Source: a virus. Taken from it: a stretch of 16,269 bases of DNA. The stretch lies in UHGV virus genome UHGV-0094181; one strand, given 5' to 3'. The position numbers were made by a program, and so were the translations under genes. A model generated the notes under the pieces. The model ran no database searches, was not told the DNA's origin, and worked only from the letters and a program-made list of their open reading frames with translations. This document shows positions 3,747-12,015 of this stretch, one piece after another (the stretch's first letter is position 1; each line of letters starts with the position of its first letter).

Positions 3747-4187
3747 TCACTCTCCTTTACCGGTGCCATAGGCAGATAAGCACTCTTCAAATCCAGCCTG
3801 ATTATCCGTTTGACCAAAACTGAAGCCATGCTGAAGACCATGACGAAATGCGCTATCTTGCAATTTATCTGCGGTTTCGAGCTTCGCCTCCAGTTCTGCT
3901 ATGCGCTCTTCATAGCGAGCACCAACCGATACGGCTTTATGGAAGGCTTCGCACCACTTTGACGATTGCGCCTGCATCTTCTCCAGCTCATCCAGCAGCG
4001 CCAGCACGGTAGTGGGGTTTGCTGCGGAGTTCAGCGCGTTCAAGGCAGTGATATCTGCATCAAGCTGAGTTCCTTCTGCCAGTGAGATATCGAAAATGTC
4101 ATCAGGCGGCATAACACTAAGGCGCTCATGTGCGCCAACTGCTGCCGCTGCGATTTCACGCAGCGCCTGTTTGTCGATGTTTCTCAT
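3747..4187 (-). CDS. Ead/Ea22-like protein, 146 aa; N-terminal 68 aa nearly identical to ORF 4184-4711
   Basis: AGGAGG RBS 7 nt upstream; MRNIDKQALREIAAAAVGAHERL... N-terminus duplicated; start overlaps upstream stop (ATGA). Confidence 0.65.
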   Translation of the reverse strand: MRNIDKQALREIAAAAVGAHERLSVMPPDDIFDISLAEGTQLDADITALNALNSAANPTTVLALLDELEKMQAQSSKWCEAFHKAVSVGARYEERIAELEAKLETADKLQDSAFRHGLQHGFSFGQTDNQAGFEECLSAYGTGKGE

Positions 4188-4194
4188 TGGGCGG
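3999..4194. repeat. Direct repeat copy 1 (196 bp perfect match to 4523-4718)
   Basis: Aligned by eye: identical from cgccagcacgg... to ...cattgggcgg; one mismatch at 3998 just outside. Confidence 0.85.
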
Positions 4195-4711
4195 CCTCCT
4201 GGCGGTCTATGCGTTCAATTTCAGCCAGAATAAGTGCGCCAGCTTTTACTAAGTCGCGGCGTGCTCCTGATTGCTTCCACCAGTCAGGAGACCACGGCCA
4301 ATGTGCTGGAGTGGAGAAACCTTGGTTGTGCGCATGAATTGCGTAACAAGCCGCTGCATCTGCTAATTCGCTATTTTGATATGCGTTGTCATGTTCAGGA
4401 GTCCATCCTTCAACCGACTGTTGCCGCTGGCGTTCTGCTACCACATCAAGAATTGCGGGATTGAATGCGCCCCCCTCCAGTTCTGCTATGCGCTTCTCTG
4501 CGGCTTCCAACTCATCCAGCATCGCCAGCACGGTAGTGGGGTTTGCTGCGGAGTTCAGCGCGTTCAAGGCAGTGATATCTGCATCAAGCTGAGTTCCTTC
4601 TGCCAGTGAGATATCGAAAATGTCATCAGGCGGCATAACACTAAGGCGCTCATGTGCGCCAACTGCTGCCGCTGCGATTTCACGCAGCGCCTGTTTGTCG
4701 ATGTTTCTCAT
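4184..4711 (-). CDS. Ead/Ea22-like protein with DUF550-like C-terminal domain, 175 aa
   Basis: C-terminal EGWTPEHDNAYQ...HWPWSPDWWKQSGARRDLVKAGALILAEIERIDR resembles DUF550 as I recall it; N-terminus duplicated in 3747-4187. Confidence 0.7.
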   Translation of the reverse strand: MRNIDKQALREIAAAAVGAHERLSVMPPDDIFDISLAEGTQLDADITALNALNSAANPTTVLAMLDELEAAEKRIAELEGGAFNPAILDVVAERQRQQSVEGWTPEHDNAYQNSELADAAACYAIHAHNQGFSTPAHWPWSPDWWKQSGARRDLVKAGALILAEIERIDRQEAAQ

Positions 4712-7892: not shown

Positions 7893-8135
7893 TTACTTGC
7901 CGAGTGCCTTGTCGATGGCGGAACGAGCCATATCAAACTCATCTGTTTGACGGTCTGCTACTCTAACTACAGCCTGCAGAGCTTCCAGTAATTCAGGCGC
8001 TGCAGTAATGAGAGTCTTGTTTTCCTTGCTCGTCATTTCAAGTGGATATCCCTTTCCAAAGACTATGTGATGCTTGTTTCCCAAGCCCTCTTCATCCCAA
8101 AACCACGGACCGGGAGTTCCTTTAAATTCGCTCAT
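7893..8135 (-). CDS. Hypothetical protein, 80 aa ([11 protein letters not shown]...[10 protein letters not shown]), paralog of ORF 8802-9080
   Basis: AGGAAG RBS 8 nt upstream; shared N-terminal EFKGTPG.W and central AAP(E/D)LLEALQ motifs with the 92-aa ORF. Confidence 0.6.
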
Positions 8136-8138
8136 AAC

Positions 8139-8288
8139 TCACTTCCTGTGCCACGGAAAACCAATTGCCGCCTTCATATCGTTGTAGGCTGACATCCACA
8201 TTTCACTATCACCAATAAATCGGGCTATTACTGCTTTGTTCTGTGCAGCACGAAGCATCTGGTGATTAATGGCTATTTCATTGTGCAT
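8139..8288 (-). CDS. kil: Kil-like small protein, 49 aa (MHNEIAINHQMLRAAQNKAVIARFIGDSEMWMSAYNDMKAAIGFPWHRK)
   Basis: Below ORF-track cutoff; GGAGG RBS 5 nt upstream; lies between cIII-like gene and gam as kil does in lambda; IA.FIGD motif resembles my recollection of lambda Kil. Confidence 0.5.
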   Translation of the reverse strand: MHNEIAINHQMLRAAQNKAVIARFIGDSEMWMSAYNDMKAAIGFPWHRK

Positions 8289-8407
8289 AACGCCTCCAGT
8301 TGTTTCTTTGCTGCTCTGATTAATTGTTTAACTCGGCGTGATAATTCAGATTCGTGCGGGTAGAAAGCGGACATGACGCCGCTACCCGCGAGCTGAAAGT
8401 GCATCAT
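8273..8407 (-). CDS. cIII: cIII-like small protein, 44 aa (MMHFQLAGSGVMSAFYPHESELSRRVKQLIRAAKKQLEALCTMK)
   Basis: AAGGAG RBS 6 nt upstream of ATGATG; overlaps kil-like start by 16 nt as cIII/kil do in lambda; amphipathic P.ES.L.R....L region resembles lambda CIII core. Confidence 0.5.
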   Translation of the reverse strand: MMHFQLAGSGVMSAFYPHESELSRRVKQLIRAAKKQLEALCTMK

Positions 8408-8473
8408 GGGTAACTCCTTATATTTGATTGCATAACGAAAACGCCTCGAGTGAAGCGTTATTGGTATGCATAT

Positions 8474-8497
8474 AAAAAGGCCCTCACACTGGAGGGC
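8474..8497 (-). terminator. Intrinsic terminator-like hairpin on minus strand (GCCCTC-CAGTGT-GAGGGC then CTTTTTATA)
   Basis: 6-bp GC-rich stem with U-tract on the transcribed strand, upstream of cIII-like gene. Confidence 0.55.
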
Positions 8498-8592
8498 AAA
8501 GAAGATTTCCAATAATCAGAACAAGTCGGCTCCTGTTTAGTTACGAGCGACATTGCTCCGTGTATTCACTCGTTGGAATGAATACACAGTGC

Positions 8593-8805
8593 TTATTCGC
8601 GAGCTTTGAGCATGGCATCAGCAATAAAGTAGGCATCATCTGCTAATTCTTTGTACTGTGGTGAATTCTGTCCACCGCCAAAGGAATGTCCGTCCCATCT
8701 GCGCACTATTGCTGCCATAGCCTTAGCAGCGAAGTAATCACGTAATGTCGCATCACTTGCCATTTCTGGGCGTTTGATATCTGCTTCATAAAACTCGCAC
8801 ATCAT
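8593..8805 (-). CDS. Hypothetical protein, 70 aa
   Basis: GGAGGT RBS; ATGA overlap with upstream gene; not recognised. Confidence 0.6.
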   Translation of the reverse strand: MMCEFYEADIKRPEMASDATLRDYFAAKAMAAIVRRWDGHSFGGGQNSPQYKELADDAYFIADAMLKARE

Positions 8806-9080
8806 TCACCTCCCAGAGCCTTGCTGATTGCTGCCTTGGCTCGTTTGTATTCGGTTAACTCTCTGCACCCTTCGTCATGCTCGTAAAGGAAGACAAGCTC
8901 TTGCAGTGCTTCAAGCAAATCAGGAGCTGCTGCTATCAGTAGCGCATCCTCCCTTTCATTTCTTGTTGCTGCTTCAATGTATGTGTCACCAATCGTCACA
9001 CCATGGAACGTAGTCATCATCTCGTTGACGTTTCTAACCGTGTACTTCCATTTACCAGGCGTACCCTTAAACTCTTTCAT
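8802..9080 (-). CDS. Hypothetical protein, about 92 aa (MKEFKGTPGKW...AAPDLLEALQ), paralog of ORF 7893-8135
   Basis: GAGGTG RBS before ATG at 9080 (ORF-track GTG at 9086 less likely); paralogous motifs. Confidence 0.6.
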   Translation of the reverse strand: MKEFKGTPGKWKYTVRNVNEMMTTFHGVTIGDTYIEAATRNEREDALLIAAAPDLLEALQELVFLYEHDEGCRELTEYKRAKAAISKALGGE

Positions 9081-9102
9081 ATCCACCTCTGTTGTTTATG
9101 CC

Positions 9103-9128
9103 AAAAATAAAGGCCGACTATGCGGCCT
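9103..9128 (-). terminator. Intrinsic terminator on minus strand (AGGCCG-CATAGT-CGGCCT then TTTATTTTTGG) overlapping stop of the 156-aa gene
   Basis: 6-bp stem and U-tract; part of a repeated about 38-bp element (second, degenerate copy at 9631-9667). Confidence 0.6.
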
Positions 9129-9597
9129 AGTAGAATACCCAATTTTCTGTTTCTTGGTTGTGTCCAAAGTTATATTCAATATCTGGTGTTGATGTATCAA
9201 TATTCTTCATCCCATCAACAAGAGTTGATACAACAGCAAAATCTTGTTTGATTCTCATCAAATGGTATTTCTTCCGGCGCAATAAACTTTCAATGGCAAG
9301 TTTCTTCGTCGGGAACGCAAAAGATCTTTCTGCATTTTTTGCTACTTTCTTAATTGCATATCTATTTCTCCTTTGTTTCCATTCCTGTAACCACTGATTT
9401 GGTGCTGGTTTAAAATTAACAATCCAATGCGCAGGAACCAACCATGCATAATGCTCTGTCTGATGAAAAGCTATATATTGAAGTGCGAATATTTTGATTC
9501 CATCTTCTTCAACTGTCGCTTGGAATCTCCAGAAAACAGGCATTCCATCATGTTCAGTTTCTGATTCAGGAAAAGGTACGCTCCATGATTTTGTCAT
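9127..9597 (-). CDS. Hypothetical protein, 156 aa, visibly AT-rich gene (moron-like), no recognisable domain
   Basis: GAGGTGA RBS 5 nt upstream of ATG; own terminator immediately 3'; flanked by direct repeats. Confidence 0.7.
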   Translation of the reverse strand: MTKSWSVPFPESETEHDGMPVFWRFQATVEEDGIKIFALQYIAFHQTEHYAWLVPAHWIVNFKPAPNQWLQEWKQRRNRYAIKKVAKNAERSFAFPTKKLAIESLLRRKKYHLMRIKQDFAVVSTLVDGMKNIDTSTPDIEYNFGHNQETENWVFY

Positions 9598-9630
9598 ATC
9601 TCACCTCAAATAATTCAGTGCAGTGTTTAT

Positions 9631-9667
9631 TCTGTTGTTTATGCCAAAAGAAGGCCGACTATGCGGC
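9631..9667. repeat. Degenerate second copy of the terminator-containing repeat found at 9088-9127
   Basis: tctgttgtttatgccaaaag-aaggccgactatgcggc matches 9088-9127 except for a 2-nt indel and a stem-disrupting change. Confidence 0.75.
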
Positions 9668-9677
9668 ATAATTATTT

Positions 9678-9866
9678 TTAACTATCATCAATACATGGCA
9701 CTTTATTCCAGTCGATATCGTTTTTTGCCGAATCCCACAGGCCTTTCTTTTTGTACTTTTCTGAGCATGGAATGCAGATGTTGTAAGGCCTGCCAACCAT
9801 GTTTACAGATATTCTCTGCATCTCTTCAGATGCCAGAAAGTACCCACAGAATTGACATTTATGCAT
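9678..9866 (-). CDS. Small zinc-ribbon-like protein, 62 aa (CQFC ... CIPC)
   Basis: Two C-x2-C pairs 21 residues apart; GGGGTGA RBS; starts 3 nt after N stop. Confidence 0.65.
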   Translation of the reverse strand: MHKCQFCGYFLASEEMQRISVNMVGRPYNICIPCSEKYKKKGLWDSAKNDIDWNKVPCIDDS

Positions 9867-9869
9867 ATC

Positions 9870-10202
9870 TCACCCCTCATACAGTAGCTTACTGCCTAAT
9901 TTCATTTTCTGGCGACCAACACAAGTCACCCCCATTTCACTGCGTGGCTTGCTGTACCATGTGCGCTGATTCTTGTGCTCAATACGTTGCAGGTTGCTTT
10001 CAATCTGTTCGTGGTATTCAGCCAGCACCGTAAGGTCTATCGGATTCAGTGCGCTTTCTACTCGTGATTTCGGTTTGCGATTCAGCGATAGAATAGGGCG
10101 GTTAACTGGCTTTGCGCTTACCCCAACTAACAGGGGGTTTGCTGCTTTCCATTGAGCCTGTTTCTCTGCGCGACGTTCGCGGCGGCGTGTTTGTGCATCC
10201 AT
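9870..10202 (-). CDS. N: Antitermination protein N, 110 aa
   Basis: N-terminus MDAQTRRRERRAEKQAQWKAANPLLVGVSAKPVNRPILSL matches the lambda N arginine-rich motif and body; C-terminal 25 aa diverge; AGGAGA RBS. Confidence 0.95.
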   Translation of the reverse strand: MDAQTRRRERRAEKQAQWKAANPLLVGVSAKPVNRPILSLNRKPKSRVESALNPIDLTVLAEYHEQIESNLQRIEHKNQRTWYSKPRSEMGVTCVGRQKMKLGSKLLYEG

Positions 10203-10230
10203 CTGGATTCTCCTGTCAGTTAGCTTTGGT

Positions 10231-10446
10231 GGTGTGGTGGCTGGTAGTCTAGCTCCAGCTTGTTGAGTCTCATTCGGAGGGGTATAACCGGCACCCCAGC
10301 GATTTTTCCATGCGACAACGTGCGCGTTATGGCGGCCTTATCGCCCGCGGCTCCCCATCTCGTCCACGCTATTGCTAGCGTTGGGAGCGCTTCACCGCTC
10401 AACAGTAGGTAAGCACTTGCCAGTGACTAGCTGGCTTCACCACACC
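10231..10446 (-). promoter_or_regulatory. Structured GC-rich N leader: 9-bp long-range stem (GGTGTGGTG / CACCACACC) enclosing about 198 nt with two CTAG-containing hairpins (10240-10259, 10419-10435)
   Basis: Complementary segments read directly; lambda has a shorter RNase III-processed hairpin in the same place (recollection). Confidence 0.5.
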
Positions 10447-10470
10447 CCAAAGCCTTCTGCTTTGAATGCT

Positions 10471-10501
10471 GCCCTTCTTCAGGGCTAAATTTTTAAGAGC
10501 A
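10471..10501 (-). promoter_or_regulatory. nutL (boxB GCCCTGAAGAAGGGC; boxA-like TGCTCTTAA) on minus strand
   Basis: Exact boxB hairpin and near-consensus boxA between pL and N. Confidence 0.85.
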
Positions 10502-10533
10502 TCACCTTCATGGTGGTTAGTGCGTCCTGCTGA

Positions 10534-10613
10534 TGGCTTAAAATTACAAGAAAGATTGTATGTTGTAAACAAGAAGAATTGTAAAAAGAGGCGTGAAAAA
10601 CAAACTCCGTTGT
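10534..10613 (-). promoter_or_regulatory. pL / oL region with three 434-type 14-bp operators (ACAAGAAAGATTGT 10546-10559; ACAAGAAGAATTGT 10569-10582; ACAAACTCCGTTGT 10600-10613); transcript start near 10534
   Basis: ACAA-N6-TTGT sites typical of 434 repressor operators; sequence downstream of start (ATCAGCAGGACGCAC...) resembles lambda pL leader. Confidence 0.7.
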
Positions 10614-10740
10614 TTTTAAACGGAAAATAGTTTGTTTTTTGGTTATCGAGATTGAGGTGGGGATTACTGGTTGCAGGTTCCGACTACATCACCAACAAAG
10701 GATTTGGTTGATGTAAGTTGTTGCATACCTGGGATATTCA

Positions 10741-12015
<1,275 letters not shown>

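Follow-up and report, generated by a model that had tools for sequence, protein, structure and literature searches.

The 156-aa gene and its borders

The virus genome UHGV-0094181 was analyzed as a single stretch of 16,269 nucleotides (nt), here called the window, which carries the early region of a lambdoid prophage with its entire leftward (pL) operon on the minus strand. We examined a gene for a 156-amino-acid (aa) protein that lies in this operon downstream of the antiterminator gene N, together with a repeated element, here called linker T, that flanks it on both sides. An earlier note, made from the letters alone, had described the gene as an AT-rich moron bracketed by terminator-containing direct repeats. 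All of the sequence features listed in that note were found, at or within 2 to 3 nt of the positions it gave. The gene and the elements that border it are the following.

9127..9597 including the stop codon, minus strand: 156-aa accessory gene of the HK97 gp45/933W L0079 family (PHROG 1636), with an ATG start
9598..9612, minus strand: translation initiation region of the 156-aa gene, TTATTTGAGGTGAGAT before the ATG, common to all upstream contexts in the IMG/VR loci
9613..9630, minus strand: spacer ATAAACACTGCACTGAA (in the sense of the gene) between T and the initiation region, from comparison of an empty locus (L008) with L006, L009 and the window
9088..9128, minus strand: downstream copy of T, a predicted intrinsic terminator with a 6-bp stem, a run of uridines (U-run) and a leader, TTTTGGCATAAACAACAGA, that runs into the Shine-Dalgarno (SD) sequence of the next gene
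9631..9669, minus strand: upstream copy of T, with a weakened stem (ATGCCG...CGGCCT) and a U-run of reduced length; the one copy of T that mEp213 has is identical to it

The 156-aa gene had the lowest GC content (0.365) and the lowest GC content at third codon positions (GC3; 0.293) of the 30 open reading frames (ORFs) in the window. The other 29 had means of 0.467 and 0.455, which places the gene at z-scores of −2.6 and −3.2, respectively, and sliding GC fell to a trough of 0.36 to 0.39 across 9000-9900, against 0.45 to 0.55 on either side. The gene is thus AT richer than its neighbors, as had been observed. Coding constraint was evident among eight homologues, in which 18 of the 26 variable sites were third codon positions. 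The strong ribosome-binding site previously ascribed to the gene, GAGGTGA, was present before its ATG, in an initiation region that reads GAGGTGAGATATG.

The protein matched the PHROG 1636 profile over its full length (residues 1-156 on positions 1-156 of 156; E = 1.3e-111). The gene was 97 to 99% identical in nucleotide sequence to HK97 gene 45, 933W L0079, an unannotated H-19B ORF and the corresponding genes in about 80 phage records, mostly of Shiga toxin (Stx)-converting phages, where they are annotated as hypothetical. Compared with HK97 gene 45 (Gp45, AAF31125) and 933W L0079 (AAD25424), identity was 97.5 to 97.9% at the nucleotide level and 98.7 to 99.4% at the protein level. By this identity the gene is not new: it is a long-catalogued gene of lambdoid phages, HK97 gene 45 being the same as 933W L0079. 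Its product is called hypothetical in every source, and a literature search on L0079, HK97 gp45, phrog_1636 and the protein accessions returned no study of any member and no reported function. The 156-aa sequence was likewise not found in the accessible part of the supplements to an accessory-gene screen (PMC12373910).

Linker T occurs as two different copies

The downstream copy of T forms the hairpin AGGCCG-CATAGT-CGGCCT followed by TTATTTTTGG, with an RNA folding energy of −11.8 kcal/mol. Its stem (9128-9111) begins within the TAG stop codon of the 156-aa gene, where an intrinsic terminator had already been noticed, and the combination of a GC-rich stem-loop and a U-run does predict one at 9111-9128. 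The same version of T was also found after an Nmad5-family gene in two other loci (L006 and L008). The upstream copy differs by a 2-nt indel and in the outer stem pairs, being 2 nt shorter and lacking two of these pairs; at 9631-9669 it folds weakly, and the terminator scan did not call it.

The presence of the element on both sides of the gene, in degenerate form upstream, was not a chance resemblance. A 19-mer, TCTGTTGTTTATGCCAAAA, is repeated exactly at 9088-9106 and 9631-9649, and a 17-mer, AAGGCCGACTATGCGGC, at 9110-9126 and 9651-9667; neither repeat was recovered in 200 shuffles (0/200 each). The resulting direct repeat of approximately 40 nt encloses a segment of 543 bp. The 11-nt sequence CATATCTCACC, which had also been reported as duplicated, was found at 9595-9605, before the 156-aa gene, and at 9864-9874, in the initiation region of the 62-aa gene that precedes it. 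This duplication was less striking statistically, 4 of 200 shuffles giving at least two matches with one mismatch allowed.

A pattern scan recovered T in at least 120 IMG/VR viral contigs. Among the 82 copies for which flanks were available, at least eight distinct gene ends stood upstream, namely Nmad5-type genes (24 copies), a further gene (20 copies), the 156-aa gene (10 copies), the 62-aa gene (7 copies) and others. Downstream of T stood either the leader of the I1 hairpin/156-aa gene (53 copies) or a gene of the EFKGT family (29 copies). In prophages that lack the 156-aa gene, the spacer sequence of 9613..9630 links T directly to the I1 hairpin. T is a promiscuous intergenic linker, used as a joint by many alternative modules of the slot.

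The 156-aa gene is optional between identical flanks

The slot that holds the 156-aa gene is delimited, in the order of transcription, by the following features.

10471..10485, minus strand: nutL boxB, GCCCTGAAGAAGGGC on the minus strand, listed as a hairpin upstream of the N gene (N36 domain)
9870..10202, minus strand: lambda-type antiterminator N (Pfam N36, E = 2e-26)
9678..9866, minus strand: 62-aa gene (phrog_19863), zinc-ribbon-like with a CxxC...CxxC pattern and a weak GRF-like Pfam match, in the first slot after N
8802..9080, minus strand: 92-aa gene (phrog_1273) of the EFKGTPGxW family, after linker T; its likely start is the ATG at 9080, and the ORF listing extends it to a GTG at 9086
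8593..8805, minus strand: 70-aa gene, the last in the variable slot
8555..8592, minus strand: I1 hairpin, a 14-bp perfect stem without a U-run (RNA −27.4 kcal/mol, z = −6.8)
8480..8497, minus strand: canonical intrinsic terminator before cIII/kil, whose HK97 equivalent is annotated as the terminator of gene 45

The hairpin at 10471..10485 we take to be the counterpart of lambda boxB. A lambda-type boxB upstream of a lambda-type N marks nutL and so places the 156-aa gene in the pL operon. The I1 hairpin is a conserved 3' border of the slot, found in 933W, HK97, 683R2 and several Escherichia coli prophages, and can take the place of T as the element joined to the 3' end of the 156-aa gene; rather than a terminator, it could be an element for RNase III or for mRNA stability.

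We then compared gene orders in this slot across related phages and prophages.

Window: 62-aa gene, T, 156-aa gene, T, 92-aa gene
mEp213: 62-aa gene, one copy of T, 92-aa gene, with the 156-aa gene absent
E. coli EC556: ral, Nmad5-family gene, T and then directly the I1 hairpin, with the 156-aa gene absent
E. coli isolate 30345_1#31 (NZ_OZ040539, locus L006): Nmad5-family gene, T, 156-aa gene, I1
933W, HK97 and 683R2: N, 156-aa gene, I1
Bas106: N, 54-aa gene, 156-aa gene, T, 92-aa gene
ECONIH4: N, 62-aa gene, T, 156-aa gene and then an insertion sequence element

The gene is thus missing between the same flanks in mEp213 and in EC556, as the proposal of a cassette would have it. Relative to mEp213, and again in L006 relative to EC556, it is added DNA between neighbors that adjoin each other in a related phage. 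These empty sites with identical flanks show that the 156-aa ORF, which is real and intact, is a dispensable accessory gene of lambdoid phages. The slot also corresponds, as had been suggested, to that of lambda sieB, ral and ea10: its occupants in other prophages include ral, an Nmad5-family gene and a DUF2528/Ea10-like gene. Any part of 8800-9900 was matched in only about 1,100 of 5,426 complete E. coli genomes, and none of the 5,426 covered at least 80% of this interval.

Two further observations concern the occupants of this region. The first position after N holds a different gene in Bas106 (54 aa) and in the window (62 aa), both small and function-less. In mEp213 (locus L002, 191-246 and 850-1122) there are two different N genes, with a second copy of T near the second N, which suggests that its early-left region is duplicated or hybrid.

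Junctions point to a crossover within the gene

Among the 80 IMG/VR loci that hold the 156-aa gene, its upstream junction was with the 3' end of N in 63, with T in 9 and with one of three other gene ends in 7, while the downstream junction was with I1 or T. All combinations of upstream and downstream junction occurred, the combination of N and I1 accounting for 52 of the 80 loci. The double-T arrangement was rare: it was seen in 2 of the 80, with junctions identical to those of the window, in three of the linker-containing contigs listed and, at a coverage of at least 80%, in none of the 5,426 complete E. coli genomes.

The boundaries of the module could be placed closely. At the 5' side, homology among contexts starts 16 to 35 nt before the ATG, and the initiation region (9598..9612) forms the boundary; GCAGCAAACCACTTATTTGAGGTGAGATATG is common to N and three other upstream genes, and with the linker context only TTATTTGAGGTGAGATATG is in common. 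At the 3' side the contexts part within the final two codons of the gene, TTC TAC TAG-gccgc versus TTT TAT TAG-tacgaataagcactg. The window was of the Bas106 type at the 3' sites 9130 and 9133 and of the ECONIH4/L006 type at the 5' sites 9520 and 9607.

These observations are consistent with a model in which the 156-aa gene is a small mobile module in a hypervariable slot of the pL operon, between N and the terminator preceding cIII. The arrangement in the window would then have arisen by a homologous crossover inside the 156-aa gene, the parents being one of the type 62-aa gene, T, 156-aa gene, hairpin and one of the type X, 156-aa gene, T, 92-aa gene. Such a crossover between two common parental arrangements seems to explain the double T most simply, and better than a single insertion event. 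The repeats are a by-product of the shared linker rather than an insertion scar, since T follows many genes and all junction combinations exist. The duplication of CATATCTCACC is explained in the same way, in that the 62-aa and the 156-aa genes have both inherited a junction of the N 3' end with GAGG(G)GTGAGATATG, which marks the first position after N.

Had the direct repeats been the target-site duplication or attachment-site-like scar of one transposition-like or site-specific insertion, a repeat of about 40 nt around a 543-bp segment and an empty site with one copy, as in mEp213, are what one would see. Yet no mobility ORF (transposase or integrase) and no terminal inverted repeat was found in the segment, and most genomes with the gene have one T or none, the N-to-I1 arrangement predominating. 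T stands singly beside at least eight unrelated genes, its two copies in the window are different variants that each match a different parental context, and the 3' junction falls within the last two codons of the gene. We regard such an insertion as extremely improbable. A 6-bp duplication, GCACTG, at the T/I1 junction was considered as evidence of mechanism and rejected, as these are the 6 nt with which the I1 stem begins. The earlier idea of a cassette inserted at a conserved linker is therefore retained in its first part, an optional cassette exchanged at conserved linkers, and given up in its second, as the repeats are not the marks of one insertion.

The exchange process itself is ordinary, textbook lambdoid mosaicism. 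Susskind and Botstein reportedly set out a module theory of lambdoid phages; Juhala et al. in 2000 are said to have described modular exchange at boundary sequences in these phages and to have defined morons for HK97 and HK022; Clark et al. in 2001 reportedly found exchange at conserved boundary or linker sequences in HK620; and De Paepe et al. in 2014 are said to have dealt with relaxed homologous recombination. In the present case, modules delimited by T, by the I1 hairpin, and by the N 3' end with the initiation region reassort in all combinations. This is the same in principle, linker T and its list of partners being documented from the present analysis. We consider the evolutionary and anatomical part of our explanation highly probable.

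The gene is probably read from pL

In a passage of Cumby et al. 2012 (PMC3594210), a moron is defined as added DNA of deviant GC content that has its own terminator and its own promoter, with expression from the repressed prophage. The added DNA, the deviant GC content and a predicted terminator of its own, a 6-bp GC-rich stem with its U-run at 9128-9111, all apply to the 156-aa gene. No sigma-70-like site was found upstream of it in a consensus scan of 3 kb (8000-11000), which returned two promoter-like sites against 5.1 expected, neither of them upstream of the gene. In 63 of the 80 IMG/VR loci the gene comes directly after N, with the TGA of N lying within the SD sequence of the gene (aaaccacttatTTGAGGTGAGATATG), so that there is no intergenic space in the common arrangement. 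For these reasons the label of moron in the strict sense, used in the earlier note, could not be upheld: the gene is not a strict moron. The earlier interpretation is partly right, as regards a cassette exchanged at linkers in the ral/sieB slot.

The 156-aa gene would instead lack a promoter of its own and be read from pL. It has a strong SD sequence. In most phages this SD sequence overlaps the N stop codon, so that no terminator separates the gene from N. The first canonical terminator that HK97 has beyond its pL-like promoter is situated past gene 45, to which the annotation assigns it; in the window, the scan called no terminator between N and the intact T at 9128-9111. As the gene in the window runs up to the first good intrinsic terminator downstream of pL, we infer that it belongs to the earliest, N-independent leftward transcript, on which it would be made together with N.

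The closest comparison is with HK97 gene 45 and 933W L0079, which are the same gene in the same pL operon slot after N. In these two phages the gene stands directly between N and I1, whereas in the window the 62-aa gene and T precede it and a second T and two small genes follow. In lambda and P22, ral (restriction alleviation), sieB (exclusion) and the ea10/ssb-like DUF2528 gene share the position between N and cIII, and like the 156-aa gene they are dispensable, vary between phages and are transcribed from pL; in related prophages, ral and DUF2528 genes are found in the slot in place of the 156-aa gene or next to it. Ral has 66 aa; SieB, a membrane protein, has a promoter of its own. The 156-aa protein has no sequence or predicted-fold similarity to the products of these slot genes, being soluble, basic and 156 aa long. 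The likeness to the morons of HK97 and HK022, with HK97 gp15 as the archetype, lies in the extra DNA, the deviant GC content and the 3' terminator. The archetype, a late tail operon gene with expression from the prophage, encodes a membrane protein; the 156-aa gene differs in that it has no detected promoter, is embedded co-directionally in an early operon and is coupled to N.

The product belongs to a phage-only family with a confidently predicted fold

The 156-aa protein has a mass of 18.7 kDa and a pI of 9.1. Its charge is unevenly spread, the middle third (residues 61-120) having a pI of 11.1 and 17 Lys/Arg residues and the N- and C-terminal thirds being acidic. No transmembrane segment was predicted (maximum Kyte-Doolittle mean over 19 residues, 0.56), and there was no Pfam or NCBIfam match, in keeping with the first impression of a protein lacking recognizable motifs. 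Searches with PADLOC-DB v2 defense profiles gave only a chance-level match to Cas1_II (E = 0.018, 12 bits), profile searches against Protein Data Bank (PDB) sequences gave nothing better than E = 0.3, and Rfam models on 8000-11000 gave only a chance microRNA match.

An exhaustive profile search collected 87 cluster representatives at E ≤ 1e-3, most of them 130 to 160 aa long. Among the PHROGs they match only 1636, 13631 and 25384, none of which has an assigned function, and they match no Pfam family. Scattered chance matches were all that Pfam returned for 74 members. Across 74 diverse homologues the conserved basic residues are R24, K83, K84, K87, K98, R108 and K109; an E-T pair at 46-47, G33, A101 and a hydrophobic core are also conserved, and no obvious catalytic constellation was conserved among them. 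These data indicate a soluble basic protein of a phage-restricted family.

An AlphaFold (AF2) model built from the diverse alignment had a predicted local distance difference test score (pLDDT) of 95.4 and a predicted template modeling score (pTM) of 0.83. Strands are predicted at 19-30, 33-46, 50-55 and 83-86, short helices at 58-74 and a long helix at 98-130, with an ordered C-terminal tail. The predicted fold is of the alpha+beta type, a long beta-hairpin sheet packed on a 33-residue helix. A Foldseek search of BFVD returned 13 matches at E ≤ 1e-3, all uncharacterized and from phages of Erwinia, Achromobacter, Delftia, Rhizobium, Sinorhizobium, Tenacibaculum and Cellulophaga. The model is thus a confidently predicted fold without a solved relative.

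Relatives in other genera share the early-left operon

Homologues in Marinobacterium, Pseudomaricurvus, Pectobacterium, Brenneria, Cronobacter, Rosenbergiella and one metagenomic prophage are co-directional members of the early-left operon, between repressor and integrase. Their place in the operon varies, the gene adjoining N/cIII in Cronobacter and xis/int in Pectobacterium and Brenneria. Pantoea phage LIET2 gave a weak tblastn match, within a cluster in which small and mostly hypothetical genes accompany a DNA methyltransferase.

A DNA methyltransferase gene lay within a few genes of a distant family member in four of six contexts (L010, L012, L013/L014 and L016), a raw count, to be read against the background frequency of methylases in early operons.

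An early role and its alternatives

Taken as a whole, the best explanation is that the 156-aa gene is a shuffled accessory gene, read from pL, with an early role, and we give it a probability of roughly 0.55. Its functional part is more tentative and falls short of an even chance. The conserved cationic surface of the modeled protein would bind nucleic acid or an acidic host protein, an assignment that we make with low confidence. With similarly low confidence, we propose an early lytic accessory role, in counter-defense or host takeover, rather than lysogenic conversion by expression from the prophage. A lytic role fits the other occupants of the slot, that is, ral, the Nmad5-family gene predicted to act in nucleotide modification and the Ea10-like gene, and it fits the existence of relatives outside lambdoid prophages. 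Nmad5 is presented in PMC11846954 as a predicted DNA modification enzyme tied to escape from Tmn, not as an anti-defense protein. In its most specific form, with HK97 gp45/933W L0079 as the founder of a widespread phage-only family with a new fold, made together with N and acting as an early counter-defense or host-takeover factor that binds nucleic acid or a host protein, the proposal is possible, if doubtful.

Several points weigh against this explanation. The promoter result comes from a crude consensus scan, which would miss weak or non-sigma-70 promoters, and immediate-early expression is inferred from terminators that are themselves predicted. The weakened upstream copy of T in the window could still terminate part of the transcripts. 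The gene has no conserved position across genera, as it adjoins N in E. coli and Cronobacter and xis/int in Pectobacterium and Brenneria, which weakens the arguments from adjacency to N. On a metagenomic phage contig (L011), a distant homologue lies on the strand opposite to its neighbors and so must be transcribed there from a promoter of its own. The ligand of the basic patch could be a protein instead of nucleic acid, and the recombinant signature consists of only four informative sites.

The L011 homologue is also the sort of arrangement that a true moron would show, one independently transcribed from the repressed prophage and of benefit to the lysogen through superinfection exclusion or abortive-infection defense, as with sieB in the lambda/P22 slot. 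The insertion of additional DNA between conserved flanks, the deviant GC content and the gene's own terminator fit that reading too, the upstream copy of T could insulate the gene from read-through, and the same slot holds sieB in lambda. It is contradicted by the lack of a promoter-like site upstream, by the abutment on N, whose stop lies within the SD sequence in 63 of 80 loci, and by the homologues that are co-directional members of early operons. A relative occurs in the non-lambdoid Pantoea phage LIET2, and the fold recurs in uncharacterized proteins of unrelated phages; there was no PADLOC match, and the protein has no membrane segment, unlike SieB or HK97 gp15. We judge a true moron quite unlikely. 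The constant company of RecT/Erf/YqaJ, Gam and xis/int in the early-left operon raises another alternative, that the protein is a DNA-binding helper of that operon, in recombination, excision/integration or the establishment of lysogeny, rather than a weapon directed at the host. Its place immediately before xis/int in Pectobacterium and Brenneria, the conserved basic patch and the nearby methyltransferases of distant relatives can be read this way. Against it, the gene is freely present or absent among phages with the same recombination and integration genes, has no conserved neighbor, varies in operon position and combines alike with lambda Red-like, RecT and Erf modules, and we hold such a helper to be unlikely.

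Other features of the window

Further genes frame the early-left region. Gp157, RecT, Gam and Kil are also encoded in the window.

99-1169: int
11064-11696: S24 repressor

The 92-aa gene (8802-9080) and an 80-aa gene near kil (7893-8135), both on the minus strand, are paralogues with 40% identity (E = 9e-17), and both begin M(K/S)EFKGTPGxW. Two adjacent minus-strand genes, 3747-4187 and 4184-4711, have 68 of 69 N-terminal residues identical and diverge afterwards, which indicates a tandem partial duplication or a module swap. A 132-aa ORF at 10741-11139 (minus strand), with no Pfam match and an uncertain start, shares approximately 76 nt with the 3' end of the repressor gene; it lies at the position of lambda rexAB and may be an accessory gene expressed in the lysogen.

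Significance

The linker analysis provides a concrete, quantified case of terminator-containing joints that shuffle accessory genes after N. It is not conceptually new, and it is useful for annotating such slots. The remaining interest is in the protein itself, with its predicted fold without a solved relative, its probable very early expression and its presence in Stx phages. The gene is present in most of the Stx phages examined here and in HK97, a model phage; neither a function nor a fold has been assigned to it, and it is probably among the first to be transcribed after infection or induction. If the protein is a true counter-defense or host-takeover factor, it would bear on the spread and host range of Stx phages and would add a new structural family.

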